DNA of 32,000 nt from Massilicoli timonensis (GCF_900199515.1 NZ_LT963434.1:663272-695271), one strand, 5' to 3'. Positions 2,007-32,000 are shown, counted from the stretch's first letter. The notes: generated by a model from the letters alone, not told the origin. Program-made: numbers and translations.

Positions 2007-4607
2007 TCACGAAGTATTTTGCTCATCCTCTTTTTCTGAGCGTCCCGCATCATGATCCTGCTTTCTCAATGCCGCCAATGGCTGTGCAAAATGATAGGTA
2101 TTTTGTTGCTGGTGGGCCTTTAATAAGAAGGCGCCGGTTTCTTCCACCTCTTTCAAGAACTCTCTTGCGGAAATTCGCTGTGCGCCCTGGCTCATGCTGA
2201 TCAACTGCACCGCACCATCGGAGGTTGCCACCCGTACCTGATAGTTGCTTGCCAGTTCATGGGTTGCCTGTTCGATATACTGATCGGCGCTTTGTGCATA
2301 TTTCGTATATGCCACATAAATATCGCCGTCTTTGTGCATCATCGGTTGTGATCGCTCCACCTGATAAGCGTCAAACACCAATATCAACAAGCCGCCGTGA
2401 TAGCCTTGATAATTCCCCATCATATCGATCAGCCGTTTTCTTGCCCCTTCCATATTGTCCTTTGCCATCTGCTGCAGCTGCGGCCATGAAAAGATCAAAT
2501 TATAGCCATCTACTAGCAAACATCGCTCACTTGGCTGTTTGGCAGTCGTTTCCTTGTTCATTTTTTCGGTTTTGTGGAAAGCCTTTTTATTCTCTTTCGC
2601 CTTGGTGCGATAAGTTCTTTGAAAGATCGCTTCCAGTTCTTCTTCTCCATACGTCCGCTTGCTTGTTTCATGGGTGATCGGCGATAACACCGCTTCCTTT
2701 TTTTGATATTGATAAGGCAAGTGCATATAATGCTCCACTTCATCCCATGGCACATAAAAACCGGCGCCGTGCTTGCAGAAAATAGAACCGCAGGGAAATG
2801 CGCTGTCTTTTTGTGGATCATAACCGATCTGCGTGATCAAGGCTTCTGCGTTTTCACAAGGCGCAAAACAGGCAAACGAACAGAACAGTTTTCCTTTTCC
2901 TTTGCTGTAAGCATGCAGTTTCCCCTGATAGCCATGCAGCTTGGCAACCGGCGCACGACCGCTTAAAACAGCACTTTCTCCATTATCGCTTACAAGGGCA
3001 AATGTTCCCTGCATCGCTTCCACATCATAGATTGCTTTGGCGACAAGCGCGCTGGGCACTTCCATTTCATAGGCATAATATGGTTCCAAAAGCACACTTT
3101 CCACCTTCATGAGCGCCTGACGAAGCGCCCGATTGCACGCCTCTTTGAAATCATTGCTCTCCATATGCTTCAAATGCGCTTTTCCACTTAACAGCGTGAT
3201 GCGTACATCGGTCAGCGGCATCCCACAAAGCACGCCCGGGAACTGCGTTGTTTCCAAATGATCGAGAATGAGCCTCTGCCAGTTTTTCGCCAATTCATCA
3301 TAAGGACAGACAGAGCGTACTTCTACACCGCTTCCCTGTGGCAATGGTTCTAGCAGCAGATGCACTTCCGCATAGTGCCGCAGCGGTTCAAAATGGCCGA
3401 CACCTTCTGCCGCCGTCCGGATCGTTTCCATGTATGCCACCTTATCCGCTCTTAATGCCACCGACACACCATATCGCGCTTCGATCAGCTGCCTTATTAC
3501 TTCAATTTGAATTTCTCCCATCAGACGGATGAACAAAGTACCGTCTTTCAAAGTTACGTGAAGCTGTGGATCTTCTTTTGCCAACTCTTTCAATTGACGA
3601 TGCAGCTGAAACAAATCCACCTGCTGCAGCGGTTCCACCACATAATTAAGATAAGCGGCAAGCATCGGTTTTTCTGTTTTTTCATACCCTAACGCTGCCC
3701 CGGCATAAAGATGTCGTACCCCTTTCAAGGTAATGATCTCTCCCGCTTTTGCCTCCTGCACGATCTGAAAATCATTTCCCTGATAACGCCGCAGCTGATC
3801 GATCTTTTCTTTGTTTCCCAATACTTGCTTTGCCCGCAGGATCCCGCCGGTTATTTTTACATGTGCCAAGATGCTGCCCTGTTCATCATGAGTGATCTGA
3901 TATACTTTTGCCCCGAATGTATCCGGATAGGTTTTCTGTATCGTAAAACGATCCAGTGCATCTAAAAAGGCGACGACACCTTGCTGTTTCAAGGCTGCCC
4001 CGAAAAAACAAGGAAACAGCTTTCTTTCCATGATCGCCTTTTGTAAAGATGCATCGCTGATATGCAGCGTTTGCGCATATTCTTCCAGCAGCGCTTCTTC
4101 ACAAAGCGCGGCCTGTTCATAAAAAGCATCATCCATATCCGTAAAATCTACACAGGCATCACCCAGCTTCGTTTTGATTTCCTGAAGCAGCTGTGCTTTG
4201 GAAGCATAAGTAATATCCATTTTATTGATAAACAGGAAAGTCGGCACCTGATAATGCTTCAATAGCTTCCAGATCGTTTCCGTATGCGCCTGTACGCCGT
4301 CTAAAGCACTGATGATCACGACCGCATAATCCAATACGCCTAATGTCCGTTCCATCTCTGCTGAAAAATCCACATGACCCGGTGTATCCAATAACTGGAT
4401 GAGCGTATCCTTCCACTTTAACCGCGCCTGTTTGGCAAAAATGGTGATGCCGCGCTTTCGCTCCTGCTGATCATAATCAAAAAAGGTGCTGCCATGATCG
4501 ACCCTGCCCCATTTTCTGATCGTTTTGCTTTGGTAAAGCAGACTTTCCGATAAAGTGGTTTTTCCTGCATCTACATGCGCAAGCATGCCGACTACCGTAT
4601 ATTTCAT
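2007..4607 (-). CDS. Translation-factor GTPase (TetM/EF-G-like) fused to a C-terminal NYN/YacP (Rae1-like) ribonuclease domain
   Basis: G1 AHVDAGKT, G3 DTPGH and G4 NKMD, with EF-G/TetM-like domains II-V (GEIQIEVIRQLIEARYGV, LLEPYYAYEMEVP, GYQGKLHAYSKGKG). A Lys-rich linker follows, then CLLVDGYNLIFSWPQL...LILVFDAY...VRVATSDGAVQ, which closely resembles B. subtilis YacP/Rae1. The start is preferred at ATG 4607 (GAAGGTG, then 6 nt); the listed GTG at 4616 is an alternative. Confidence 0.8.
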   Translation of the reverse strand: MKYTVVGMLAHVDAGKTTLSESLLYQSKTIRKWGRVDHGSTFFDYDQQERKRGITIFAKQARLKWKDTLIQLLDTPGHVDFSAEMERTLGVLDYAVVIISALDGVQAHTETIWKLLKHYQVPTFLFINKMDITYASKAQLLQEIKTKLGDACVDFTDMDDAFYEQAALCEEALLEEYAQTLHISDASLQKAIMERKLFPCFFGAALKQQGVVAFLDALDRFTIQKTYPDTFGAKVYQITHDEQGSILAHVKITGGILRAKQVLGNKEKIDQLRRYQGNDFQIVQEAKAGEIITLKGVRHLYAGAALGYEKTEKPMLAAYLNYVVEPLQQVDLFQLHRQLKELAKEDPQLHVTLKDGTLFIRLMGEIQIEVIRQLIEARYGVSVALRADKVAYMETIRTAAEGVGHFEPLRHYAEVHLLLEPLPQGSGVEVRSVCPYDELAKNWQRLILDHLETTQFPGVLCGMPLTDVRITLLSGKAHLKHMESNDFKEACNRALRQALMKVESVLLEPYYAYEMEVPSALVAKAIYDVEAMQGTFALVSDNGESAVLSGRAPVAKLHGYQGKLHAYSKGKGKLFCSFACFAPCENAEALITQIGYDPQKDSAFPCGSIFCKHGAGFYVPWDEVEHYMHLPYQYQKKEAVLSPITHETSKRTYGEEELEAIFQRTYRTKAKENKKAFHKTEKMNKETTAKQPSERCLLVDGYNLIFSWPQLQQMAKDNMEGARKRLIDMMGNYQGYHGGLLILVFDAYQVERSQPMMHKDGDIYVAYTKYAQSADQYIEQATHELASNYQVRVATSDGAVQLISMSQGAQRISAREFLKEVEETGAFLLKAHQQQNTYHFAQPLAALRKQDHDAGRSEKEDEQNTS

Positions 4608-4774
4608 CAAGCGCACCTTCTTTCTATTTCTTAATAGTAAAAAATATCATGACAAAAATCAAGCACTTCTTGCTTGCCCGCTTTGATCACTATCTTTTTC
4701 TATACAAATCATGATATCCACATAACATTGCTTATAACAAGGGTATTTCCTTTAACGCCGCAAAAAGCTTCTGC

Positions 4775-4836
4775 ATAAAAAACCTCTAAAGCAAAGAGCA
4801 TTTCCGCCTAACTCTGCTTTAGAGGCATTATTTTTT
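4775..4836 (-). terminator. Rho-independent terminator downstream of pflB
   Basis: Arms cctctaaagca / tgctttagagg. On the minus strand they are followed by ttttttatg. A T-run also follows on the plus strand, so it may act bidirectionally. Confidence 0.6.
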
Positions 4837-4920
4837 GAAAGATATATTGCTTTTTAGCGAAGCATGGCGTCCTTCCTTTTTATCTGCAAGGAAGGAACGT
4901 GAATAACGCCGCTCACGTTT

Positions 4921-7149
4921 CTAAAAATGTTCGTGCATCGTACGCTTGATCACTTCATCCTGCTGCTCTTTGGTTAATTTATTGAAGTTAACCGCATAGC
5001 CGGAAACCCGGATCGTCAGCTGCGGATATTTTTCCGGATGTGCCTGTGCGTCAAGCAGCAGCGCACGATCAAACACATTGACATTCAAATGATGTCCGTT
5101 CGCTTTGACATAACCATCTAATAATGTGATCAGGTTAGCCTCACGGCTCGCATCGTCTTTTCCCAGCGCCGCCGGTACGATCGAGAAAGTATTGGAAATT
5201 CCATCGCGCGCATAGTCATACGGCAATTTCGCAACTGATTCCAGCGATGCCAACGCCCCGTTGCAGTCTCGTCCATGCATTGGATTGGCCCCCGGCGCAA
5301 AAGCTTCTCCGGCCGCTCTGCCATCCGGTGTCGCACCGGTCTTTTTGCCATATACCACATTGCTGGTGATCGTCAAAATACTCATAGAATGCACACCTTC
5401 ACGATAAGTATGGTGCTTTTTGATCTTCATCATAAAACGCTTGACGATATCCTTGGCAATCGCATCTACCCGATCATCGTTATTGCCGTATTTCGGGAAA
5501 TCGCCTTCACGGATAAAATCGACCGCGATGCCATCTTCATCACGCACGACCTTTACCTTGGCATATTTAATTGCAGATAAAGAGTCCGCAACGACGGATA
5601 ATCCCGCTACACCGGTCGCAAAGAAACGGCGAACATCCTGATCATGAAGCGCCATCTCCGCTGCTTCATAGCTGTATTTATCATGCATATAGTGAATGAC
5701 ATTCAATGTATTGACATATAAGCCGGCAAGCCATTCCAACATCTGATCATATTTTTTCATGACTTCCTCATAATCGAGATAATCAGATGTGATCGGTTCA
5801 AAACGCGGTGATACCTGTTCTTTTTTCTTTTCATCCATACCGCCGTTGATCGCATACAGCAGTGCTTTCGCCAAATTGGCGCGCGCGCCGAAAAACTGCA
5901 TGTCTTTTCCGATCCGCATGCAGGATACACAACATGCGATACCATAATCATCACCCATATCGATACGCATCAGATCATCATTTTCATACTGAATGGCGCT
6001 GGTTTTGATCGACATTTTCGCACAGTAGCGCTTGAAGCCTTCCGGCAGATCTTTCGACCAAAGCACGGTCAGATTCGGTTCCGGTGCGGGCCCTAAATTG
6101 GTAAGCGTATGTAAAATACGGAATGAGTTTTTGGTTACCAGTGTTCTGCCATCTGTTCCCATACCGCCGATCGATTCCGTTACCCAGTTTGGATCGCCTG
6201 AAAACAGTTCATTGTATTCCGGCGTACGCATAAAACGGATCAAACGCAGCTTCATGACAAACTGATCCATCAGTTCCTGCGCGCCCTTTTCATCCAGCAC
6301 GCCCTGTTCCAGATCACGCTGAATATAAATATCCAAGAAAGTGGATACACGGCCCAAGGACATCGCCGCCCCGTTTTGATCTTTCACCGCTGCCAGATAG
6401 CCGAAATAAACTGCCTGGATCGCCTCCTGCGCCGTCTGTGCCGGTTTGGCAATATCACAGCCGTAGATCTCCGCCATCTTCTTCATATCGTTCAAAGCTC
6501 TCAGCTGTTCGGCAATCTCTTCCCGACTGCGGATCTTCGCATCGGTCATCGTACCATCTAAAGCAGCCAGCGCTTCTTGCTTGTCTATGATCAGCCGATC
6601 GATTCCATATAATGCAACGCGGCGATAATCGCCAATGATACGGCCGCGCCCATACGCATCCGGCAGACCGGTAATGATCGCACAGTGTCTAGCCTTGCGC
6701 ATTTCCGGTGTATAAGCGTCAAAGACACCTTGGTTATGTGTTTTACGATATTTTGTAAAGATCTCTTTGATCTCTTTGTCGATCTCATAGCCATATGCCT
6801 TTAAGGCGCTTTCGCTCATCTTAATGCCGCCAAATGGCTGCAAGGCGCGTTTCAAAGGCGCATCGGTTTGAAAACCGACGATCTTTTCCAGCTTTTGATC
6901 CAAATAGCCGGCCTGATGCGATGTCAAAGTAGATACGACAGCGGTATCCGCATCCAGCACACCGCCTTTTTCCTGTTCTTTCTGACAAAGCGCCAGCGCC
7001 TCTTTCCAAAGTCGGTCGGTCGCTTCGCTTACTTCTGCCAAAAAACTGTCGTCGCCTTCATACGGTGTATAGTTGCACTGAATAAAATCGCGTACATCAA
7101 TTTCTTCACACCATTTTCCTGTTTGAAAACCGTTCCATTCTTTCACCAT
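4921..7149 (-). CDS. pflB: Pyruvate formate-lyase (formate C-acetyltransferase), glycyl-radical enzyme
   Basis: 742 aa. It carries the glycyl-radical motif [11 protein letters not shown] near the C-terminus and the active-site IACCVSCM. Overall length and sequence are typical of PflB. Confidence 0.95.
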
Positions 7150-7543: not shown

Positions 7544-8959
7544 TTACAGATTGATGCCGCGTAGACGCTGATACAGCGTTTTTGCATAATGATCTGTCAT
7601 ACCGCCGATAAAATCAGCAGCCATCAACAGACGATGATACACTTTTTCCTCATCAGGCAAATCTTTCGTAACGATAAAATAATGATCCATATAATTATGC
7701 GAAAGCAGTGAAACATATTTTTCTTCCATTTCACTCATCGTTTCTGTTTCGCTGTCAAAAGGAAGCAGCGCATTTACAAAACAGTCCATCAGATAAGAGA
7801 TGATCTCATTGCCCATGAGCTCTAATTGAATGATCGAGCTGGTATTGTAGATCTTTTGAAAGGCGAATGTCTTTAAGTTCAAGATCAGTTTCGCATGTGC
7901 ACATACCGCGATGAGCTCTTTTTCAAAGCGCCCCTCCATGATTGCATCATAATGTGTCACAAAGGCATCGGTAATAGCAGAGATGCAATACAGCTGCTTT
8001 AATGTCAGCCAACTGAATACAGCCTGCTTATTGCCATCATGTGGATAATAGGAAGCCACATGAGAGGAAGTCGTCTGCTTCAGCTTTTCTTCCAGCTTTG
8101 CCAAGCCTTTTTCATCATCACTTGCTAGGAGGACAGCTTTCAGATCATCGGTCGTAAATAAGCCTTTATTATAGCCATCTTCTAAATCAGAGAAGGTATA
8201 GGCGAGATCATCAGCGGCTTCCAATATATAGGTCAAAGGGTTACGGGCGTGCAGAGTGCCGGTATTGTTTTTTATTTCCTGAAAGACAGTTGCTTCACTC
8301 GCGTAATAGCCGATCTTTTTCTTCAGCAAGCTGCGCTGCGCTTTCGGTTTTTCCTGTTCTTTCCTTGCTTCTAAAGAATTGCACGGGTATTTTATGATGG
8401 TGTCCAACACGCCTGAAGTAAGATGCATGCCGTTTTTCCCATGTAAATGATGCAGACCGTTTACAATACGCAGGGACTGGGCGTTGCCTTCATAATTCAT
8501 CAGATCGCAGCGTTCCTGCTCCTTTAACAGCGCATGCAGCGTTTTGCCGTGATAGGTCAATTCATCAAGATGCTGCTTAAACCAGTTGCGGATCGCCGTT
8601 TCTCCAAAATGGCCGAACGGCGGATTGCCCAGATCATGGATCAGTGATGCGCTTGCCAATGTTTCAATGATCTCATGGCTATATGGCTGCATCGCTTTTA
8701 TCTTGGCACACACTTGTCTGCCGATCAGTTTGGCGATAGCGGAAACCTCCATGGAGTGGGTCAAACGAGTCCTGACAAAATCACTTTGATCAAGTGGAAA
8801 TACTTGGGTCTTATCTTGTAAACGCCGAAAAGAAGCGCTGTTGATGATGCGGTAATAATCGCTTTCCACTTCACTGCGCAGAAGGGAAAGATCGTTTTTG
8901 GGCTGATTAGGGGGAATGCGTTTGCTTGATACAAGCTGTTCCCATTGAAATTGTTTCAT
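7544..8959 (-). CDS. dgt: dGTP triphosphohydrolase-like HD-domain protein
   Basis: YYRIINSASFRRLQDKTQVFPL, RLTHSMEVSAIAKLIG, LIHDLGNPPFGHFGE and AADDLAYTFSDLEDG are typical of the Dgt family. The start is moved to the ATG at 8959 (MKQFQW), preceded by GAGGTG and 6 nt. Confidence 0.9.
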   Translation of the reverse strand: MKQFQWEQLVSSKRIPPNQPKNDLSLLRSEVESDYYRIINSASFRRLQDKTQVFPLDQSDFVRTRLTHSMEVSAIAKLIGRQVCAKIKAMQPYSHEIIETLASASLIHDLGNPPFGHFGETAIRNWFKQHLDELTYHGKTLHALLKEQERCDLMNYEGNAQSLRIVNGLHHLHGKNGMHLTSGVLDTIIKYPCNSLEARKEQEKPKAQRSLLKKKIGYYASEATVFQEIKNNTGTLHARNPLTYILEAADDLAYTFSDLEDGYNKGLFTTDDLKAVLLASDDEKGLAKLEEKLKQTTSSHVASYYPHDGNKQAVFSWLTLKQLYCISAITDAFVTHYDAIMEGRFEKELIAVCAHAKLILNLKTFAFQKIYNTSSIIQLELMGNEIISYLMDCFVNALLPFDSETETMSEMEEKYVSLLSHNYMDHYFIVTKDLPDEEKVYHRLLMAADFIGGMTDHYAKTLYQRLRGINL

Positions 8960-8975
8960 ATGATACACCTCATTT

Positions 8976-10340
8976 CTATGACTGACGATCAAAGGCATGA
9001 AGCCAGTCTACTTTTTGATAATAAATGAAGAAAGCAAGTGAACTGAGCGTCCATGTCAGTGGATAAACCCAATACACCATATTGATGGAATTGGTGAGCG
9101 GCACCATGATCATCAAAAACGCCACTCGCACGACGCACCAGAATACCAGCATGACGACCATCGGCACCATTGATTTGCCCGCTCCCCGCAAAATAGCGGA
9201 AATGCAATGAGAATAAGCAAGCAGGCAAAAGAAGAATGCGGCGGTACGTGCCCGATCGCTTCCATATAAGACGACCTGCGGATCATTGTTAAAAGCGACT
9301 ATGAGCAGCGGGGCAAATAAGAAGATCGCAAGACCGATCAGCTCTGCCAAGATCATCGAGCACAGGACACCGAACTTTGCCCCTTTTAAGGTACGGCCAT
9401 ATTGCTTGGCACCCAGATTTTGACCGACAAAGGTCGTCAGCGCCATGGTAAAGCTGGTAATCGGCAAAAAAGCAAAGCCTTCGATCTTTGAAAAAGCGCC
9501 GCAGCCTGCCATCGCCATCTCACCGAACGCATTGATATTAGACTGCACGACGACATTGGCAATCGCGATTATGGAATTTTGAAGGCCGGAAGGGAGCCCA
9601 TAGCGAATCACCATTTTTAAGATCGGCAGATCAAATTTCACTTTCTTGATTTCTACGCGATAAGTTTCTTTTGTGCGAAGCAACTGGATCAAACATAAGA
9701 TCGCACTGATAAACTGCGCTAAGATGGTCGCATAGGCCGCACCGTCTACCCCCATATGAAAGACGGTGATGAATACGATATCCAGCACGATGTTGACGAT
9801 CGAAGAAACGATCAAATAATAAAGCGGATGCTTGGAATCACCGACTGCCTGCAATATGCCGACAAATACATTATACATGACAAGTCCCAGTGAACCGAGA
9901 AAATAGATTCTGAAATAGGCGACTGAATCGGGCATGACATTTTCCGGCGTTCCCATCCAGATCAGGATCTGCGGCGCCAACAGCATGCCGAGGATCGTTA
10001 AAGCGATACCCGCAAAAAGGCCAAAGGCAACGGTCGTATGAATTGCCTTGCTCATGTGTTCATAATCCTTCGCGCCAAAATAGCGAGCGATCACGACCCC
10101 TGCGCCCATCGCAATACCGTTAAACAGACCGACCATCAAAAAGATGAGATTACCTGAAGAACTGACTGCAGCTAAGGCGTTGCTGCCGAGGAAATTCCCG
10201 ACGATCAAAGAATCTGCCGTATTGTATAACTGCTGAAAAAGGTTTCCCAGAAACAGCGGCAGGGCAAAGAAGGTAATCTTTTTCCAAATGATTCCTTCCG
10301 TCATTAAATTTTTTTCTGCATATTCCGCCATGTCTTTCAT
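8976..10340 (-). CDS. MATE family efflux transporter
   Basis: 12-TM-type hydrophobic profile. The N-terminal motif is IWKKITFFALPLFLGNLFQQLYNTADSLIVGNFLG. It ends 16 nt upstream of dgt, so the two are probably co-transcribed. The ATG at 10331 is an alternative start. Confidence 0.9.
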   Translation of the reverse strand: MKDMAEYAEKNLMTEGIIWKKITFFALPLFLGNLFQQLYNTADSLIVGNFLGSNALAAVSSSGNLIFLMVGLFNGIAMGAGVVIARYFGAKDYEHMSKAIHTTVAFGLFAGIALTILGMLLAPQILIWMGTPENVMPDSVAYFRIYFLGSLGLVMYNVFVGILQAVGDSKHPLYYLIVSSIVNIVLDIVFITVFHMGVDGAAYATILAQFISAILCLIQLLRTKETYRVEIKKVKFDLPILKMVIRYGLPSGLQNSIIAIANVVVQSNINAFGEMAMAGCGAFSKIEGFAFLPITSFTMALTTFVGQNLGAKQYGRTLKGAKFGVLCSMILAELIGLAIFLFAPLLIVAFNNDPQVVLYGSDRARTAAFFFCLLAYSHCISAILRGAGKSMVPMVVMLVFWCVVRVAFLMIMVPLTNSINMVYWVYPLTWTLSSLAFFIYYQKVDWLHAFDRQS

Positions 10341-21363: not shown

Positions 21364-21452
21364 GGAGATGTACTCAAGAGGCCGAAGAGGTCGCACTCGA
21401 AATGCGATAGGTCCGCAAGGGCGCGTGGGTTCGACTCCCACCATCTCCGCCA
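21364..21452 (+). tRNA. tRNA-Ser (anticodon CGA)
   Basis: Acceptor GGAGATG/CATCTCC, anticodon stem TCGCA/TGCGA with loop CTCGAAA, a long variable arm, T-loop TTCGACT and an encoded CCA. Length 89 nt. Confidence 0.9.
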
Positions 21453-22062: not shown

Positions 22063-22341
22063 TTACTTAAACAAATTAGCATGGCTGCATACACGATAAA
22101 GTATTAAAACCAAAACATTTGCAATTACTTCATACACAAGCAACCAATCAGGTTCCACATGGCATTCGCGACACCCTTTGTAATTCCCACCTAAATCATG
22201 ATCGCGATATTTTTCTTCCAAAGACTTCCCATTCGCTAACTGTTCAATAACAGAAAAAAGTTGATCAATGTCCTTCCCTTGCTTTTTGGCAAGCTTCAAA
22301 TCCTCTTTGAATTGAGTTGTAAATCGAATTTCATATTTCAT
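22063..22341 (-). CDS. yafQ: Type II toxin, YafQ/RelE-family mRNA interferase
   Basis: FKEDLKLAKKQGKDIDQL...RDHDLGGNYKGCRECHVEPDWLLVYEV...LVLILYRVCSHANLF matches the YafQ family pattern. It overlaps the antitoxin gene by 4 nt (ATGA). Confidence 0.85.
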   Translation of the reverse strand: MKYEIRFTTQFKEDLKLAKKQGKDIDQLFSVIEQLANGKSLEEKYRDHDLGGNYKGCRECHVEPDWLLVYEVIANVLVLILYRVCSHANLFK

Positions 22342-22610
22342 ACTTCTAACGCAGCCCTTAAATCAGAGATAGAAGAATAACCCGTTGCATTTTTATCATA
22401 TGCTAAAGTTCTTCCCTCTGTAATAGCAGCGATAGTCATTTCATTTGGAATATTTAACTTTAATTCAAAAGGTATGCCTTTCTCACGGATTGCTTGCCTT
22501 AAAAAGATATTTACAGCAGTAGTCATATTGATTCCTAATGCATCAAAGATCTCTTCAGCTTGCATTTTAATTTCTTTATCAACGCGGATATTCAAATTTG
22601 TAGACGCCAT
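22338..22610 (-). CDS. dinJ: Type II antitoxin, RelB/DinJ family
   Basis: TNLNIRVDKEIKMQAEEIFDALGINMTTAVNIFLRQAIREKGIPFEL is a typical DinJ ribbon-helix-helix N-terminus. SD is GGAGGTG. Confidence 0.85.
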   Translation of the reverse strand: MASTNLNIRVDKEIKMQAEEIFDALGINMTTAVNIFLRQAIREKGIPFELKLNIPNEMTIAAITEGRTLAYDKNATGYSSISDLRAALEV

Positions 22611-23221: not shown

Positions 23222-24118
23222 ATGAAAGAAAGCAGATTGTTTCGAATTTTATACTATATTCTAGAAAACGGACGTACGAGTGCTCCTGTGTTGGCTAAGC
23301 AATTTGAAGTTTCTGTACGGACGATCTATCGAGATATTGATGTCATCAGCAGCGCCGGTATTCCGATTTATGTAACACCAGGCAGAAACGGCGGTGTTCA
23401 GATCCATAAAAACTATATTTTGAATCGAGCGATGCTCACCGACAAGGAAAAACAAGAAATTCTTTCTGCCCTACAAAGCACTTCTCTTGTCAATGCGTTG
23501 CAGGAAAATGCGACTTTGACCAAATTATCCGCATTATTTCAACAGCCATCTGATAACTGGTTTGAAGTCGATTTCTCCAGATGGGGCATCAAATCGCAGG
23601 ATGATACATCTTTTTCCTTATTGAAAAAAGCTATTTTATCTCATCATGCAGTAAAAATCGTTTATGTCAATACAAACGGTCAAAAGACGGAACGGACGAT
23701 CTACCCTCTTAAAATGGTATTTAAGACGAGACAATGGTATCTGAAAGCTTTTTGTGTAAATAAAAATGACTTCCGCCTATTTAAGATGAGTCGTATGCTC
23801 AAACTACACTTATTGAGTGAAACATTTGCGCCAATGGAATATCCAAATCCTATAGATGATCTTCAAAAAACATATCCAAAAACAGTACTCCTTTTCCCAA
23901 AAGAGATGGCATATCGCGTTTATGATGAATTTGAGGCAACTGAAATCAAAGAAAAAGAAAACGGATCTTTGCTGGTGTCAGTGGAAATGCCACAAGATAA
24001 CTGGCTCATCGGATATCTGCTTTCTTTCGGTTCAACAGTAGAAATTTTAGAGCCTTCTTGGCTGCGTAAGGCCTTAGCAATAGAAGCAGAAAAAATATAT
24101 AATAAAAATATATCCTGA
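23222..24118 (+). CDS. WYL-domain transcriptional regulator (HTH-WYL-WCX; YafY/BrxR/CapW-like architecture)
   Basis: N-terminal HTH: RLFRILYYILENGRTSAPVLAKQFEVSVRTIYRDIDVISSAGIPIY...GRNGGVQI. Central WYL segment: ERTIYPLKMVFKTRQWYLKAFC...FRLFKMSRM. The C-terminal extension ends VEILEPSWLR. Confidence 0.85.
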   Translation: MKESRLFRILYYILENGRTSAPVLAKQFEVSVRTIYRDIDVISSAGIPIYVTPGRNGGVQIHKNYILNRAMLTDKEKQEILSALQSTSLVNALQENATLTKLSALFQQPSDNWFEVDFSRWGIKSQDDTSFSLLKKAILSHHAVKIVYVNTNGQKTERTIYPLKMVFKTRQWYLKAFCVNKNDFRLFKMSRMLKLHLLSETFAPMEYPNPIDDLQKTYPKTVLLFPKEMAYRVYDEFEATEIKEKENGSLLVSVEMPQDNWLIGYLLSFGSTVEILEPSWLRKALAIEAEKIYNKNIS

Positions 24119-24148
24119 CACAGGGTGTCAAGATTCCCTTGCTATAAT
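24116..24148 (+). promoter_or_regulatory. Dyad plus extended -10 promoter candidate in front of the GNAT/radical-SAM pair
   Basis: TGACAC-agg-GTGTCA (24116-24130) overlaps the WYL stop codon. TGCTATAAT (24140-24148) is an extended -10. No good -35 is present. Confidence 0.35.
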
Positions 24149-24179
24149 AGGATTGTGAATGAAATAGGGAGGGCTATTT

Positions 24180-24944
24180 ATGAGCGAAGCATTTATCACG
24201 ATCTCTGGTAATCTGTTGGAACAAGAACACTTATGTTGTGCAATGACAGATAAAAAACACCAGCCCGGTGTTACAGCTAAGAAAAAATGGCTGGCTGATC
24301 GTATTGCAGAAGGCCATATTTTCCGCAAGCTGGATGTAAATGGGAAAGTATTTATTGAATATGCACCATTAGAGACAGCTTGGGTGCCAATCCAAGGGAA
24401 GAGTTATTTGTACATCTACTGTCTTTGGGTAAGCGGATCTTTCAAAGGGAAAGGGTATGGAAAAGCACTGATGGAATCCTGTATTCTAGATGCAAAGAAA
24501 AAAGGAAAATCCGGTATCTGTGTTCTTAGTTCAAAAAAGAAAAAGCCGTTTTTAGCGGACAAGCAATTTTTTCTAAAATTTGGTTTCACGGTAGCAGATG
24601 CAATCAATGAAGAGTATGAATTGCTTGCTTTATCTTTTAGCGGAGAAATGCCTTCTTTTTCTGCTGCGGCCAAGACCATGGAAATTGCGGAAAAAGAATT
24701 GACGATTTATTATAGTGTCCAATGTCCTTGTGTTGTAGACTGTATCAAACAAGTGCGGACATATTGCGGCAAAAATAACATACCTCTTCATCTATTCGCG
24801 GTTGATACTTTAGAAAAAGCGAAAAATCTGCCTTGTGTTTTCAATAATTGGGCGGTTTTTTATAATGGGTGTTTTAAGACACATCATCTGCTTAATGAGA
24901 CATATTTGAAGAAATATGCACTCGCTCATGTAAAGGAGAAATGA
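24180..24944 (+). CDS. GNAT family N-acetyltransferase with YoaP-like C-terminal domain
   Basis: Acetyl-CoA-binding-type motif: LWVSGSFKGKGYGKALMESCILDAKKKG. The Cys-containing C-terminal domain (YYSVQCPCVVDCIKQV...PCVFNNWAVFYNG) is as I recall for B. subtilis YoaP-like proteins. Confidence 0.7.
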   Translation: MSEAFITISGNLLEQEHLCCAMTDKKHQPGVTAKKKWLADRIAEGHIFRKLDVNGKVFIEYAPLETAWVPIQGKSYLYIYCLWVSGSFKGKGYGKALMESCILDAKKKGKSGICVLSSKKKKPFLADKQFFLKFGFTVADAINEEYELLALSFSGEMPSFSAAAKTMEIAEKELTIYYSVQCPCVVDCIKQVRTYCGKNNIPLHLFAVDTLEKAKNLPCVFNNWAVFYNGCFKTHHLLNETYLKKYALAHVKEK

Positions 24945-24946
24945 TC

Positions 24947-25819
24947 ATGCATTTTGTAAAAGCAAAAGGAATATTATCTGCTGCAAACGGGATGAACCTA
25001 TATAGAGGCTGTACGCATGGCTGCATCTACTGTGATTCCAGAAGCAAGTGCTATCACATGGAGCATGCATTTGAGGATGTTGAGGTTAAGGAAAATGCAA
25101 TTCTATTATTGGAACAGGCACTTAAAAGCAAGCGTAGAAAGTGTATGCTAGGAACCGGTGCAATGAGTGATCCTTATCAGCCGATTGAACAGGATCTCGG
25201 TTATACGCGTAAAGCGCTGGAGCTGGCAGGGCGTTATGGATTTGGTTTTACATTATTAACGAAATCTGATCGGGTCTTGCAGGATCTGGATTTATTGAAA
25301 GCGATCAATGAAAAAACAAAATGTGTTGTACAAATGACCCTTACTACTTATGATGATAATTTATGCCGTAAACTTGAGCCTCATGTATGTCCGACAAGTG
25401 AGCGCATCGCTGTTTTGAAACAGTTAAGGGATGAGGGGATCCCAACAGTTGTGTGGCTTTGTCCGATCCTTCCTTTTATCAATGATACGGTGGAAAATAT
25501 CAAGGGGATATTACATGCCTGCATTGATGCAAAAGTATATGGGATCATTTGTTTTGGGATGGGGCTTACCTTACGCGAAGGGAATCGTGAGTATTTTTAT
25601 GAGCAACTGGATTGCTTGTTTCCCCATATGAAGGAAAGATATATTAACACTTATAGTATGCTTTATGAGGTGGACAGTCCGAAAGAAGCAGAGCTGATGC
25701 AGTTATTTCATCAGCTTTGTGAGGAAAACGGTATTGTCCATGATAACCGAGAAATATTCACTTATCTATCAACTTTCGAGACGAAAGAGTATGCTGTTCA
25801 GTTGAAGTTGTTTGAATGA
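24947..25819 (+). CDS. Radical SAM protein, SPL/COG1533-like family
   Basis: The CxxxCxxC cluster motif sits in LYRGCTHGCIYCDSR near the N-terminus. About 290 aa. ATG 24947 is preferred (AAGGAG plus 8 nt); ATG 24941 overlaps the GNAT stop. Confidence 0.8.
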   Translation: MHFVKAKGILSAANGMNLYRGCTHGCIYCDSRSKCYHMEHAFEDVEVKENAILLLEQALKSKRRKCMLGTGAMSDPYQPIEQDLGYTRKALELAGRYGFGFTLLTKSDRVLQDLDLLKAINEKTKCVVQMTLTTYDDNLCRKLEPHVCPTSERIAVLKQLRDEGIPTVVWLCPILPFINDTVENIKGILHACIDAKVYGIICFGMGLTLREGNREYFYEQLDCLFPHMKERYINTYSMLYEVDSPKEAELMQLFHQLCEENGIVHDNREIFTYLSTFETKEYAVQLKLFE

Positions 25820-27957: not shown

Positions 27958-28251
27958 TTATACGAAGATGATTTCTTTCTCCACAATTTCCAATGCACGC
28001 CCAAATATTATTCATTCTTTTCGTCCATTCTAAGGCGTTTTCTTCCTTTAGACAACGTACTGTTTCATCTGCTCTGTAAGTGTTTCAAAGCGTTCCTGTG
28101 CCTCCCTGTCAATGTCGGCAAGGTAAGTATTCAGTTTTCCTCTTGTAAGCAGATTTGTGCAGGTAAGCCTTTGATATTCCTTTAAGTGCGCAAACCCACA
28201 TAAATACAGTGTTTTTACGACATGCAAATTATTCGACTTGGATAGCACCAT
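27958..28251 (-). pseudogene. Decayed TnpV-like (transposon-associated) gene
   Basis: The listed 67-aa ORF contains HLKEYQRLTCTNLLTRGKLNTYLADIDREAQERFETLTEQMKQ. My translation beyond its stop gives ENALEWTKRMNNIWAC, and after another frame change ALEIVEKEIIFV*. The pieces are co-linear with my recollection of TnpV (..NLLTSGKLN.YLADID.QAQERF...ENALEW..RMNNIRA...EIVEKEIIF.). There are at least two disruptions. Confidence 0.65.
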
Positions 28252-28409
28252 TAAACATTAAACATATTTGTTCACATAACATATACTATTTAACTATTTT
28301 TAGCATGCTTTATCTCAATTATACTGACTATATGACCTAATGGTATCAAAACGGCAGCAAAAACAAAAATCAATTTATTTTTCTAAATCATTCAGTAAAA
28401 CAAATTCAC

Positions 28410-28440
28410 AAGTAAGTATTTAAAAGTAGTTTACTTACTT
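28410..28440 (-). terminator. Hairpin overlapping the effector stop codon (weak terminator candidate)
   Basis: Perfect 9-bp arms AAGTAAGTA / TACTTACTT with a 13-nt loop. The tail on the minus strand is only moderately T-rich. Confidence 0.35.
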
Positions 28441-29342
28441 CTAAGGTTTACTGTATATTGCTCTCCAACATATGAAACTTTCATTAGCTTTCCTTCTTCT
28501 TCTTGAATAATCTTTTTTGTATGATCTGCAATAACTTCTGCAAGTCTATTATTTTTAGTATCAACTCCTAAAGAAACAATTTCTTCCGCTGTTGCAAAAC
28601 AATATAAACTAGTCCCATTTTCATTTTCCATCAATAATCTCAAATCAGCTTCTTGTTCCTCCGTAAGAATAAGCTCTACTATATCCGCTAAAAGTAGTTC
28701 ATAGGTTTGAAAATGTTCACTAAATTTCACTGTAGTCATATGTCTCCCACAGTAGCGATATGAAATTTGATTCCAATCCAATATTTCTTTTTCTACTATT
28801 TCTTCCTCAAATTCTCTACTTAGATTATATATTTTCTCTCTTTCAGCTCTCTTGTCAAAATGCTTTATAAATTTGCGAAGATATTTATTTTCTAATCTAA
28901 GACGATAATCATTGCGAGAGGAACTGTCAATAGATATTTTATCGTCATCTTTAATTTGGAAAAGATTTTTCATCAACATTTTTTCATTTTCATAAAATTT
29001 ATAAACACCTCCAACTGGTTGATATTTTCCTGTCCCTCGCTCATTTTTAACCAAAAAATATTTATCATCGACTTTAATTCTATAAAGATATGCAAAAGAA
29101 ACACGTATAATTGTGTCATTTTTAATAAGCTTACCTCGTTCAAGTTTCCTTTGAGAATTTTTCCAATCAGTATCATCAAAAATATTTTGTAATGAGAACC
29201 AAAGAGCTGGAAGAGAAAATCCAGTAAATATACCAGCAATACTACTTCCAGCAGGCCAATCCTTAATTTCAAAAATTAATATGGTAAGTAGTAATGCTAT
29301 TGATATAATCACTAATACAATACTTTTCAAAATTTTCTTCAT
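28431..29342 (-). CDS. 2TM membrane protein with NUDIX-like cytoplasmic domain; putative effector of the adjacent cyclase (resembles the 'SMODS-associated NUDIX' class)
   Basis: Two N-terminal TM helices (SIVLVIISIALLLTILIFEI; IAGIFTGFSLPALWFSL). Then VSFAYLYRIKVDDKYFLVKNERGTGKYQPVGGVYKF and a degenerate Nudix-box-like REFEEEIVEKE. The ATG lies 1 nt after the cyclase stop, with SD GGAAGGA inside the cyclase gene. Confidence 0.6.
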   Translation of the reverse strand: MKKILKSIVLVIISIALLLTILIFEIKDWPAGSSIAGIFTGFSLPALWFSLQNIFDDTDWKNSQRKLERGKLIKNDTIIRVSFAYLYRIKVDDKYFLVKNERGTGKYQPVGGVYKFYENEKMLMKNLFQIKDDDKISIDSSSRNDYRLRLENKYLRKFIKHFDKRAEREKIYNLSREFEEEIVEKEILDWNQISYRYCGRHMTTVKFSEHFQTYELLLADIVELILTEEQEADLRLLMENENGTSLYCFATAEEIVSLGVDTKNNRLAEVIADHTKKIIQEEEGKLMKVSYVGEQYTVNLRSK

Positions 29343-29343
29343 A

Positions 29344-30711
29344 TTATATCCTTCCTATCGGTACATTTATTCTTTTTCTTGCGACGCAGATGCCCTCTTT
29401 AACAATATAACACTCAATATAATGATTCCCAAAAAAACTGCTATGCTCTACTATACTATTTCCTTTTTCTACAATTTGGCCTCTAAGCTGATTTCTTCGT
29501 TCTGCTTCAGGTCCAACATTTTTAACTTTCCAGAAAACCTTATATGGTACTGGACAATTTGTATATTCCATCTCACATTCTATTTTAAAATTATGTGGCA
29601 AATAACGCCTTAATGTTGATAAAAACTCTAAAAGAGGTTTAGGTCGCCATCCATCACCACTAACATTACAGGATACATTACAACGATATGAAAGATTCAC
29701 TGGATATAATTCTTCAATATATTCTTCAGTATCCACATATGAAGAAATAGGTTTTGTTAACAATCCTAAAGAACTATTAGCAGTTTCATTAATTTGATCA
29801 CTCCAATACTGATGATTAAAAAAGCCATACCAAGCTTGAAACGCATCAGATTTAGTACATTCATCTTTAAATAATACATCTAAATCTTCAAGTTTACTTT
29901 TTAACCTATTTTTAAAATTAATCATTTTTTGTTCATCACTTTTTCTTGGTGTTAAATCTCTACCATCATCAACAGGAGCAATAACAGAAGTATCAATTTC
30001 TAATCTATTCACAATTTCTTTCATCGTATAATAAAAAAGTTCATCAATTCTTTCATATGAATCTTGCAACTTTTCATCACACAAAATTGTTTGAATTAAT
30101 CCACTAGGCATATTTTTCCATGAAGATCGAGATTTACAAAACATTTTGGACAAGCGAACTATTTTTCTAAGTTTTCCATCTGAATTGTCATTTTGTGTTT
30201 GAAACCATTCTGTTAAACCTTTAAGTTCCCTTTTTGTCCATTCATTTCCAGCATGTTCATAAATCCAACTATCACTTTGAGTATCATATGTTCTTCTATA
30301 GACAGCAAAATCAATATGATAACCCTCTACGTATTTTATCCTAACACAACTTGTTTTCACTTCTGGTTCAGCATTGAATTGTTTTGTTTTTCTTTTGAGT
30401 GCATTAGCAACCATATTCCTAGTTGCTTGAGCCCCTTTATCCCCAAGAGATGTTTTATCAAAAACAATTGCAACATCTATATCATAATCACCCTCATCAT
30501 TTTGAATGATTGTAGATATTGCCATACTACCTTGTACACATGTTTCTACAATAGAATACGCTGTATCATATTCATCATTGTATTCCTTTAGTCCATCCTT
30601 CAAACGTTGTATATTTAAGTTCTTTTTTGCATATAAGTTATCTTGGTTTCCTTGAGATAAAACAACATGCGAACTGTAAAATTCATTAAATTTAGACGAT
30701 AAATCAAACAT
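29344..30711 (-). CDS. cGAS/DncV-like nucleotidyltransferase (CD-NTase / SMODS) with a roughly 150-aa C-terminal sensor-like extension (AGS-C-like)
   Basis: Pol-beta NTase triad in CD-NTase spacing: VQGSMAISTII (G-S), EGDYDIDVAIVF (DxD), GYHIDFAVYRR (third Asp). The C-terminal region is YRCNVSCNVSGDGWRPKP...PYKVFWKVKNVGPEAERRNQLRGQIV...HYIECYIVKEG. Confidence 0.8.
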   Translation of the reverse strand: MFDLSSKFNEFYSSHVVLSQGNQDNLYAKKNLNIQRLKDGLKEYNDEYDTAYSIVETCVQGSMAISTIIQNDEGDYDIDVAIVFDKTSLGDKGAQATRNMVANALKRKTKQFNAEPEVKTSCVRIKYVEGYHIDFAVYRRTYDTQSDSWIYEHAGNEWTKRELKGLTEWFQTQNDNSDGKLRKIVRLSKMFCKSRSSWKNMPSGLIQTILCDEKLQDSYERIDELFYYTMKEIVNRLEIDTSVIAPVDDGRDLTPRKSDEQKMINFKNRLKSKLEDLDVLFKDECTKSDAFQAWYGFFNHQYWSDQINETANSSLGLLTKPISSYVDTEEYIEELYPVNLSYRCNVSCNVSGDGWRPKPLLEFLSTLRRYLPHNFKIECEMEYTNCPVPYKVFWKVKNVGPEAERRNQLRGQIVEKGNSIVEHSSFFGNHYIECYIVKEGICVARKRINVPIGRI

Positions 30712-30899
30712 TTTTCAACCTAATATATATACATGACAATGTAAATGCCACTTATAAATATACCTTTTCCTTTCTATCAACATTTACTCATAGTTGATTT
30801 TATTTAACAATTTCATATTGATTTGACCAAGAGATTTAAATATGTTATTCTTAACGAGATGAAATCATTATGCAAATAGCATATTTGAATCTCAGAACG

Positions 30900-30932
30900 C
30901 ATTATTAAGTTATTGCCACTAACTTAATGATG
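30900..30932. promoter_or_regulatory. 13-bp-arm inverted repeat in the ImmA/cyclase intergenic region (operator candidate)
   Basis: CATTATTAAGTTA-ttgccac-TAACTTAATGATG, with 12 of 13 positions complementary. No U-tract follows on the minus strand, so it is not a canonical terminator for the upstream genes. Confidence 0.4.
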
Positions 30933-30983
30933 TGTTTTTATTTACATCCATTTTGCATCACCTCCTTAAAGAAGAATCTTATA

Positions 30984-31652
30984 TCAATACCATGAATCTC
31001 TTTCATGTTGTAATTCTTCTTCCATATATGGATCATAATAGTCTACTCTTTTTGGAGCAATTGAATCTATAAATGTTTGATACTTTAAAACAATACTTTC
31101 ATCAATTACTCTCTCGTCATAAGAGCGATGACTAAAGTCTATTTTTCGAAGTGTATCCAATCGCTTTTTGGCTGCCGTTTTAGACACTTTAAACCAAGAC
31201 ATCAAATTTTCAACGGTAATTTGCTTTCCTCTATTTATTAACTCATTGATAATTTGTTCTGGCATTAACATCTGTGCCGCAAAAAAGTTCGTTTCAACTT
31301 CATAAATTCCATACATATTTTTATTATCTAAATCATGATTCAATTGAATATGACCAAATTCATGATTTAGACTAAAACGTTGTCTCTCTTTACTAGAAAT
31401 TTCTTCATTATAGAAAATTATTCCTTTTCCCTCTAAATTTTGATAAATTGCATCTTGAGAACCAAATGTTTTAATATCTATACCATACATTCCTGCTTTT
31501 AAGTAACTTCGACATGCAATATTAGTTTTCTCCTTAATAACCTTTTTTATTGAAAAGGGAAAAGTTTCTATAACAATTGAAGACACTAAAACATCATTTG
31601 CTTTTTCCAACGCTTTTTTAAAATCTGGTTTTAAGCAATCACTATAAATCAT
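30984..31652 (-). CDS. ImmA/IrrE-family zinc metallopeptidase
   Basis: HExxH motif in SLNHEFGHIQLNHDL, followed by FAAQMLMPE, which is typical of ImmA/IrrE. ATG 31652 is the preferred start (GAGGGGG plus 6 nt). It overlaps the XRE stop, which implies translational coupling. Confidence 0.85.
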   Translation of the reverse strand: MIYSDCLKPDFKKALEKANDVLVSSIVIETFPFSIKKVIKEKTNIACRSYLKAGMYGIDIKTFGSQDAIYQNLEGKGIIFYNEEISSKERQRFSLNHEFGHIQLNHDLDNKNMYGIYEVETNFFAAQMLMPEQIINELINRGKQITVENLMSWFKVSKTAAKKRLDTLRKIDFSHRSYDERVIDESIVLKYQTFIDSIAPKRVDYYDPYMEEELQHERDSWY

Positions 31653-32000
31653 CATCTTCCCCCTCATCATCATTAAATATATCGTCAAAAACAACTTTTA
31701 GCATTTTTTCTGCTTTTTGAATCTGTTGGTCATCAAGTTGTTCCAAACCACGTTGGATATATGAAAGTTTTTTATTCACTGTTTCAATTTCATCTTCTAC
31801 TCGATTTCCTAATAGATCATCAATAGAAATACTATATAATTTTGATATTTTTAATAAAATATCATCTCGAGGTACAACTCCTTTATTTTCCCACATACTA
31901 ACTGCACCTTTTGTAACGCCTAGTTGATCCGCAATTTCTTGCATAGTAAATTTGTTGTTACTACGTATTCGCTTAATTGCTTTACTAAACTCTTTATTCG
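31642..32000 (-). CDS. XRE-family helix-turn-helix repressor (5' end beyond the window)
   Basis: The frame is open to nt 32000 (NKEFSKAIKRIRSNNKFT precedes the listed Met). HTH: MQEIADQLGVTKGAVSMWENKGVVP. The C-terminal tail is acidic. Confidence 0.85.
   Translation of the reverse strand, partial: NKEFSKAIKRIRSNNKFTMQEIADQLGVTKGAVSMWENKGVVPRDDILLKISKLYSISIDDLLGNRVEDEIETVNKKLSYIQRGLEQLDDQQIQKAEKMLKVVFDDIFNDDEGEDDDL

Follow-up and report, generated by a model that had tools for sequence, protein, structure and literature searches.

The two-gene operon at positions 28,431 to 30,711 of a 32,000-nucleotide stretch of the Massilicoli timonensis genome (GCF_900199515.1, NZ_LT963434.1:663272-695271; the whole stretch is called the window below) has its closest described relatives among the cyclic-oligonucleotide-based anti-phage signalling systems (CBASS). 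The transmembrane (TM)-NUDIX effectors of CBASS have been named Cap16 (review PMC10419184, citing Duncan-Lowey 2021, Mol Cell). According to that review Cap13, Cap14 (SAVED) and Cap16 (NUDIX) are toxic through oligomerisation and damage to the inner membrane, and Cap16 with a mutated NUDIX domain is said to stay toxic (PMC10419184, citing Duncan-Lowey 2021). A later preprint likewise summarises Cap14 to Cap16 as proteins that bind cyclic nucleotides, oligomerise and disrupt the membrane, with no structural data (bioRxiv 10.1101/2025.11.13.688252). The same 2TM-NUDIX module is found with UG23 reverse transcriptases, which are without a cGAS/DncV-like nucleotidyltransferase (CD-NTase) partner (PMC9226505). 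The C-terminal AGS-C domain of CBASS cyclases has also been surveyed: it is an immunoglobulin (Ig)-like domain of about 18 kDa that about 40% of type I CBASS carry as a fusion; nearly all systems of clades B and H have it, and it also occurs in parts of F and G (bioRxiv 10.1101/2023.05.21.541620). In a large phage-challenge screen that included AGS-C-fused cyclases, protection against Drexlerviridae was broader where AGS-C was present, and cross-resistance of escaper phages likewise correlated with the domain (bioRxiv 10.1101/2023.05.21.541620).

The locus comprises four genes on the minus strand, and its two-gene core is very probably a functional type I CBASS anti-phage operon. It is an ordinary, catalogued system present as an intact copy: an AGS-C cyclase with a Cap16 effector and minor regulatory variation. 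What the sequence analysis itself shows are the domain identities, the intact cyclase active site, tight gene coupling, synteny, selection and the Nudix fold. An earlier, sequence-only reading of the window had proposed a minimal CD-NTase/NUDIX defence operon here; both open reading frames (ORFs) lie where it placed them, on the minus strand, with every motif that it quoted at the expected place. The features are as follows.

28229..28430 (-): 3′ flank, still part of the conserved block (blastn against the metagenome contig L028)
28431..29342 (-): Cap16-type effector, 303 amino acids (aa), TM hairpin plus predicted cytosolic SMODS-associated NUDIX domain (Pfam Sa_NUDIX, PADLOC '2TM')
29344..30711 (-): CD-NTase of 455 aa with an AGS-C Ig-like domain at its C-terminus, closest to clade B (Pfam, PADLOC, PDB match)
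30712..30983 (-): 272-nt intergenic region between peptidase and cyclase genes, which we infer to hold the cyclase promoter/operator site
30984..31652 (-): M78 (ImmA/IrrE/CapP-like) zinc metallopeptidase, 222 aa (Pfam Peptidase_M78, PADLOC capP)
31642..32000 (-): XRE-family helix-turn-helix (HTH) repressor (ImmR/CapH-like), 5′ end cut by the window edge (Pfam HTH_3)

The gene content is that of type I. The interval 28229-32000 holds just the HTH, M78, cyclase and effector genes; no Cap2/Cap3 (E1/E2/JAB) or HORMA/TRIP13 gene was found in window positions 28000-32000 or in the fuller locus L028, one of two metagenome contigs (L028 and L029) that carry the same four genes. The type I CBASS-like architecture proposed earlier is borne out by Pfam, PADLOC, PDB and synteny. 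The junction between cyclase and effector reads GGAAGGATA-TAA-T-ATG, so that the effector ORF starts 1 nt past the cyclase stop, as had been noted, and a Shine-Dalgarno-like GGAAGG sits inside the end of the cyclase gene. All four genes are under purifying selection, judged by the ratio of nonsynonymous to synonymous change (pN/pS) against the 97%-identical relative L028: 0.07 for the HTH repressor, 0.15 for the M78 peptidase, 0.13 for the cyclase and 0.22 for the effector. A consensus promoter/terminator scan of 28000-32000 did no better than chance, finding 24 against 23.0 expected from shuffles. The word minimal is not wholly apt, since in this lineage the two genes are kept as one block together with a repressor/peptidase pair upstream of them.

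The locus itself adds little, as standard defence finders would classify it as type I CBASS. The sequence-only reading had gone further and held that neither the effector class nor the cyclase extension was experimentally characterised. That was overstated, because Cap16 has been named and tested, with toxicity reported, AGS-C cyclases have been included in a phage screen, and both proteins match PADLOC CBASS models end to end. The Cap16 class is thus named and partly tested, and its mechanism is thinly described; the literature searched yielded no later work on the ligand or activity of the Cap16 Nudix domain. The value of the locus lies in being a compact, apparently intact test case for the ligand or substrate of that domain, for AGS-C sensing and for the regulation of Gram-positive CBASS by short ImmA-like peptidases.

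The cyclase and effector proteins

The 455-aa cyclase carries QGSMAIST at residues 60-67, DYDIDV at 75-80 and HIDFAV at 132-137, and the GS ... [DE]xD ... D nucleotidyltransferase active site that marks CBASS membership is intact. Gly-61, Ser-62, Asp-77, Asp-79 and Asp-134 are invariant in 20 cyclase homologues (72-97% identity) and also in 7 cyclase sequences that reach down to 24% identity. The PADLOC Cyclase model (PDLC00778) matches residues 1-453 of 455 (3.9e-194), while Pfam recognises SMODS (3e-08), DncV-like_NTFase (7e-17) and, at residues 327-452, AGS_C (5e-39), which accounts for the C-terminal extension seen previously. These profile searches also settle that the protein is not of the KNTase/MNT type. 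Together with the effector matches given below they lie far beyond chance.

The best solved relative is 7LJO (4.3e-16), which covers residues 2-302; the next PDB matches are at 2e-07, and none of them reaches the AGS-C region. A published analysis identifies 7LJO as Bacteroides fragilis CdnB (BfCdnB), a clade B04 enzyme whose product is mainly 3′3′-cGAMP. Judged from this closest solved match, rather than from placement in a tree, the cyclase appears closest to clade B. It shares the GS/DxD/D core and C-terminal AGS-C domain with the AGS-C-fused type I CBASS of clade B (BfCdnB, 7LJO; EaCdnB-Cap15), but unlike EaCdnB it is partnered by Cap16, not Cap15.

On the basis of Pfam and the literature the AGS-C domain is Ig-like. 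The AlphaFold2 model of the cyclase is poor (mean predicted local distance difference test score, pLDDT, 46), with beta strands at residues 344-452 where pLDDT is about 65-84. We note that ten residues of the AGS-C part (window 29344-29745, residues 323-455) are invariant even in the 24%-identical AGS-C cyclase: Trp-394, Asn-398, Arg-410, Gly-411, Glu-422, Gly-428, His-430, Cys-434, Lys-438 and Cys-442. The H-x3-C-x7-C spacing among them might form a metal or ligand site.

The effector is recognised by Pfam Sa_NUDIX (PF18167; 1.2e-63, residues 79-279, profile positions 2-199 of 199) and, over positions 2-299 of 299, by the PADLOC Effector '2TM' model (PDLC00667; 3.1e-104). The N-terminal TM helices of the Cap16 class are present. 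Hydropathy locates helix 1 (about residues 4-27), which is strongly hydrophobic with a Kyte-Doolittle maximum of 3.08 at residues 8-26, and the AlphaFold2 model (pLDDT 73) has long helices at both 2-27 and 30-55, followed by an alpha/beta domain. The MKK at the N-terminus and the K/R-rich segment after helix 2 fit an N-in/C-in topology; with this charge pattern the Nudix domain would therefore be cytoplasmic. A search of the PDB with Foldseek returned Nudix-fold proteins for all of the top 50 matches, so the soluble domain is modelled with a Nudix fold, as had been anticipated. A Cap15-type beta-barrel was considered for the effector and rejected, being absent from the same 50 matches. By sequence, a profile of 29 homologues found no solved structure for the effector, even at E = 1.

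The effector resembles Cap16 in its N-terminal TM helices, in its SMODS-associated NUDIX domain and in the position of its gene right behind that of a CD-NTase; the likeness is one of domain architecture and of the full-length match to the '2TM' model rather than of comparison with the tested Cap16 sequence, and the effector here comes from a low-GC Firmicute-type island. Cap15 and Cap14 also combine an N-terminal TM segment with a cytosolic nucleotide-sensing domain, and ligand-induced oligomerisation with disruption of the inner membrane is reported for them. Where these have a beta-barrel or a SAVED domain, the predicted sensor here has the alpha/beta/alpha fold of Nudix proteins, and it retains residues of catalytic type. 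The 2TM plus NUDIX architecture is the same as in the UG23 reverse transcriptase systems (PMC9226505), whose PADLOC model (RTasNUDIX) matches effector residues 74-279 at 1.8e-55. The partner here is a CD-NTase and not a reverse transcriptase.

Spread of the cyclase–effector pair

The effector family is modest in size but widespread, with many members in Firmicutes of the gut and mouth and on plasmids of Enterococcus. The effector has 940 matches in a 90%-clustered protein collection; its family makes up 720 clusters at 50% identity among 1.84 billion protein representatives, 479 of them below 1e-10. The nearest relatives of the effector come from gut and oral Clostridia, Veillonella and Parvimonas. 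Exact peptide patterns taken from the single protein were too strict for a genome scan and found none, and alignment gave 27 loci from distinct species. These are mostly Clostridia metagenome-assembled genomes, with Veillonella, Staphylococcus coagulans and Pisciglobus in addition; the loci labelled L018 to L027 are among them.

The pairing is conserved: in at least 22 of the 27 loci the gene directly before that of the Cap16 homologue encodes a cyclase. In 18 it is a close homologue of the AGS-C cyclase (51-82% identity) and in L024 a divergent AGS-C cyclase. In L018, L020 and L023 the cyclase carries no AGS-C domain, and a small gene lies between it and the Cap16 homologue. L027 has a cyclase, again one that lacks AGS-C, with a larger E2 gene downstream of the effector. 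L019 carries the same small gene, and its 442-aa upstream ORF gives just a weak cyclase match, by alignment rather than profile search. Most loci without an upstream cyclase end at the contig boundary or are without an intact cyclase or TM region.

PADLOC identifies the small gene as E2 in L018 (5547-5999), L020 (5553-5984) and L023 (5496-5990), at 1e-22 to 1e-27, and calls E2 in L027 at 7934-8659, with the range extending to 3e-55. The small ORF of L019 (5469-6002) aligns with the E2 proteins of L018, L020 and L023, on alignment alone. Pfam does not recognise the E2 proteins of the Cap16 loci. A detached AGS-C domain had been considered for this ORF of about 150 aa between cyclase and Cap16 in L018, L019, L020 and L023, and was rejected on the PADLOC E2 calls and the alignment. 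Cap16 is thus common to type I and to E2-only (short type II) CBASS.

Other architectures of the Sa_NUDIX domain were also seen, in P0267 (649 aa), P0300, P0302, P0337 and P0355 (412-442 aa), P0342 (502 aa) and L025 (5708-6475). They include proteins with two matched stretches, proteins with an N-terminal NUDIX domain and a C-terminal extension of about 180 aa, and proteins with a C-terminal NUDIX domain after about 300 aa; the L025 copy is without most of the TM hairpin.

Effector homologues also occur on 39 plasmids, of which 34 belong to Enterococcus, and on a single contig deposited, unverified, as an Enterococcus phage. One plasmid and the phage contig were inspected, and both show the same order, with the cyclase immediately before the Cap16 homologue. 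On the Enterococcus faecalis plasmid pR712_01 (L030, 2543-3894) the cyclase is split across two reading frames and missing from the gene table, which makes it either a pseudogene or the product of a sequencing error. The phage contig (OR846606.1, L031) is 44 kb long, unannotated and deposited as phage under 'UNVERIFIED_ORG'; at 3578-5852 it carries an intact cyclase (53% identity) and a Cap16 homologue (43%). Should the contig prove to be viral, its CBASS would be one carried by a phage.

The frame-shifted plasmid copy, of which there is at least one, raises the question of whether the operon in the window could be a decaying or non-defensive passenger, for instance an addiction module that stabilises an island. 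The mosaic, low-GC accessory region around it, with a toxin-antitoxin pair and a TnpV fragment, would suit such a role. We find this hardly credible, given that neither ORF is truncated relative to the PADLOC models, that the catalytic residues are intact and that pN/pS is low in the cyclase (0.13) and effector (0.22).

Proposed mechanism and the role of the Nudix domain

As a functional CBASS the operon would work as follows. The CD-NTase with its AGS-C domain would be inactive until phage infection and would then make a cyclic di- or oligonucleotide. The co-translated Cap16-type effector would sense this signal through its cytosolic Nudix-fold domain and may then oligomerise via its N-terminal TM hairpin and breach the cytoplasmic membrane, so that the cell would die before phage release (abortive infection). 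In this lineage the XRE repressor and its cognate M78 peptidase probably gate expression of the operon, much as ImmR/ImmA or CapH/CapP do. For signal synthesis and identity, ligand binding by the Nudix domain and regulation by the HTH/peptidase pair, this scheme follows the named analogues; for oligomerisation and membrane damage it follows the reports on Cap14, Cap15 and Cap16.

Several observations weigh against this scheme. The literature consulted does not name the ligand of any Cap16. The pairing of the 2TM-NUDIX module with UG23 reverse transcriptases means that its trigger need not be a CD-NTase product. Helix 2 of the effector (residues 30-55) is Gly/Ser-rich and moderately hydrophobic, below the 1.6 threshold, and the Foldseek matches to Nudix proteins are individually weak (best E 9e-3, best probability 0.94). 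As regards regulation, the HTH/M78 pair is absent from the Cap16 loci of all 27 other species; the two genes are co-directional, not divergent, and the peptidase is without the GAF domain of CapP. A further difficulty, the conservation of the Nudix residues, hints at metal-dependent catalysis by the effector.

The motif YQPVGGVYKF is at effector residues 107-116 and REFEEE at 176-181. The 23-residue Nudix box G-x5-E-x7-R-E-U-x-E-E-x-G-U has no regular-expression match in the effector, which holds the REUxEE core only, so that the word degenerate used for it in the sequence-only reading was accurate. Glu-169 is 7, not 8, residues before Arg-176, and the flanking positions are without Gly. The effector differs in this from canonical Nudix hydrolases, since it has no full box; its core R/E/E/E is invariant. 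Across effector homologues of 33-69% identity Arg-176, Glu-177, Glu-180 and Glu-181 do not vary, and the same is true of R-x-SFAYL-x-R (residues 80-88) and QPxGG (108-112). Invariance of the four core residues exceeds the obvious need of a pure receptor. The main puzzle is that these metal-binding residues are invariant when toxicity reportedly survives mutation of the NUDIX domain, and it invites two other readings of the domain, as a killing enzyme or as a sensor that degrades its signal.

In the first, activated Cap16 would itself kill by hydrolysing an essential metabolite with a nucleoside-diphosphate linkage, such as NAD+, ADP-ribose, nucleoside triphosphates (NTPs/dNTPs) or capped RNA, and the TM hairpin would anchor or regulate it. 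Depletion of metabolites is an established strategy of CBASS effectors (PMC10419184), the structural neighbours are all Nudix hydrolases, and the R-E-x-x-E-E of the Nudix helix is invariant as described. We nevertheless judge this very unlikely. The toxicity that Cap16 is reported to keep after NUDIX mutation (PMC10419184, citing Duncan-Lowey 2021) speaks against it, as do the absence of a full Nudix box, with no G-x5-E and with an E-to-RE spacing one residue short, and the conservation of the TM hairpin throughout the family.

Alternatively, the Nudix domain could both sense and degrade the signal: binding would trigger membrane disruption, and hydrolysis at REUxEE would act as an off-switch or threshold filter, much as in self-limiting CARF ring nucleases. 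This would reconcile the invariant catalytic-type residues with toxicity that is reportedly independent of the NUDIX motif. Reuse of the module with several CD-NTase clades, in E2-only CBASS and with reverse transcriptases also argues for a nucleotide-handling domain. The chemistry is no obvious fit, since Nudix enzymes cleave pyrophosphate and cyclic signals with 3′-5′ or 2′-5′ phosphodiester linkages have none. We regard degradation of the signal as decidedly improbable and retain the Nudix domain as a putative receptor that gates membrane disruption.

The repressor/peptidase pair and the boundaries of the putative cassette

For the M78 peptidase the start follows that of the 222-aa gene called in L028. 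The protein contains the motifs HEFGH and EVETNFFA and matches Pfam Peptidase_M78 (6.5e-18), with a weak HTH_11 match after the peptidase domain. Its best PADLOC match is capP (2.9e-18), over the peptidase part only (profile 47-150 of 242), and its best PDB match is IrrE (5e-3). Pfam gives no GAF domain match in it and there is no Cys between HEFGH and EVETN. The XRE repressor matches Pfam HTH_3 (2e-08) and, weakly, PADLOC capH (2.8e-3); its best PDB match is the ImmR-type Xre regulator of ICEBs1 (7T8I, 7e-05). The HTH frame is open to the window edge and has a full-length orthologue in L028 and L029, of 120 aa in L028.

The HTH and peptidase genes overlap by 11 nt, and their being encoded together beside an immune operon is a feature of CapH/CapP. 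An XRE HTH gene that overlaps an M78 gene (HExxH plus ExExNxFA) directly upstream of an immune operon is shared with CapH/CapP, ImmR/ImmA and DdrO/IrrE. Canonical CapP is a peptidase-HTH-GAF protein with a groove for single-stranded DNA (ssDNA) between peptidase and GAF domains and often a cysteine switch, which is not in all homologues; capH/capP are divergent from the operon in the vast majority of systems, and CapH/CapP-type pairs are documented with type I CBASS. Here, unlike in CapH/CapP, the pair is co-directional and the 222-aa peptidase has neither GAF domain nor switch Cys. For these reasons, and because of the ICEBs1 match, we describe the pair as ImmR/ImmA- or CapH/CapP-like and not as CapH/CapP proper. 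Being short, GAF-less and devoid of the switch Cys, the peptidase is closer in build to ImmA, and ssDNA therefore cannot be assumed to be its activator. A combined picture can be drawn in which Cap16 is more than a ligand-gated membrane disruptor and acts, by virtue of its invariant Nudix-helix glutamates, as a signal-dependent nucleotide pyrophosphatase, for a second toxicity or for signal clearing, the GAF-less ImmA-type peptidase couples CBASS to a trigger other than ssDNA, and AGS-C senses a phage protein directly; that all of this should hold jointly is unlikely.

All four genes run in the same direction (minus), with the 272-nt gap separating the regulator pair from the cyclase gene. An imperfect palindrome lies in this spacer at 30898-30934 (-), 50-86 nt after the peptidase stop, with 18-nt arms and a 1-nt spacer. 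Its arms are complementary at 15 of 18 positions in the window and 16 of 18 (89%) in L028, and no T-run follows; it may serve as an operator or fold into a hairpin in the transcript. The whole 272-nt spacer has 9 differences from L028. A shared operator was looked for between the upstream region of the L028 HTH gene and the peptidase-cyclase spacer, and just 12-15-nt matches appeared, which is chance level in AT-rich DNA.

Window positions 28229-31998 are 96.9% identical to L028 6096-9866 (blastn), and the four genes form one block of 3.77 kb, with this level of identity in L029 as well. In L028 and L029 this block comes directly after guaA, and guaA in L028 is directly upstream of the regulator genes; the flank beyond the block differs from that of the window. 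Similarity to L028 and L029 ends exactly at the second copy of GAGTGGGAATAA, the last 12 nt of guaA. In L028, and equally in L029, this 3′ end of guaA is duplicated at 5255-5266 and 9855-9866 (12/12), and an inner 23-nt direct repeat brackets the block at 5325-5347 and 9735-9757 (21/23). The window has one copy of the 23-nt repeat, TGCTGCCGTTTTGATACCATTAG, at 28337-28359, and, at 28229-28240, a degenerate version of the 12-nt guaA end, CAAGTCGAATAA. The duplicated guaA end and the bracketing repeat suggest a cassette of about 4.5 kb that was inserted at the guaA 3′ end and has no integrase of its own; the guaA-end 12-mer alone could be chance.

These boundaries bear on a different reading of the regulator pair, namely that it is the leftover ImmR/ImmA module of an integrative element at the guaA 3′ end and that the CBASS genes use a constitutive promoter of their own. 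Among solved structures the HTH protein is matched best by the ICEBs1 regulator, and its gene pair is co-directional, an arrangement that ICEBs1 has too and that differs from the divergent one reported for the vast majority of capH/capP. The missing GAF domain, the absence of the pair from the 27 other Cap16 loci, the 272-nt gap before the cyclase gene and the position of the L028/L029 block beside guaA, with direct repeats that include the duplicated guaA 3′ end, all agree with it. Against this, the pair and the CBASS genes have been kept as one 3.77-kb block at 97% identity while the outer flank changed, and in L028 the interval from guaA to the pair contains neither an integrase gene nor any other gene of a mobile element. 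The best PADLOC match of the peptidase is also capP, and type I CBASS with CapH/CapP-type pairs are on record. A leftover module is possible but doubtful, and gating of the operon by the pair stays our preferred account.

Just outside the cassette boundary, window 28048-28251 (-) encodes a 67-aa ORF that matches only the middle of TnpV (profile 32-75 of 111), a mobile-element remnant. A tRNA-Ser(CGA) gene at 21364-21452 opens a low-GC accessory stretch (29-39%) that runs to the window end, with 39-52% GC in the core genome to its left; the stretch presumably extends to guaA. This low-GC region carries the TnpV fragment, a YafQ/RelB pair and a WYL regulator. At 22063-22610 (-) a YafQ-family toxin (1.7e-33) and a RelB/DinJ-type antitoxin (2.4e-15) are encoded by overlapping genes and make up a type II toxin-antitoxin system. 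At 23222-25819 (+) lies the gene of an HTH-WYL-WCX regulator, built like the immune repressors of CapW type; genes for a GNAT-YoaP acetyltransferase and a radical SAM protein come next on the same strand, and the three may make up one regulated module. At 2007-4616 (-) an 869-aa ORF joins an EF-G/Tet(M)-like translational GTPase (residues 7-590) to a C-terminal YacP-type NYN nuclease (700-840), a fusion that would be unusual if this is a single gene.

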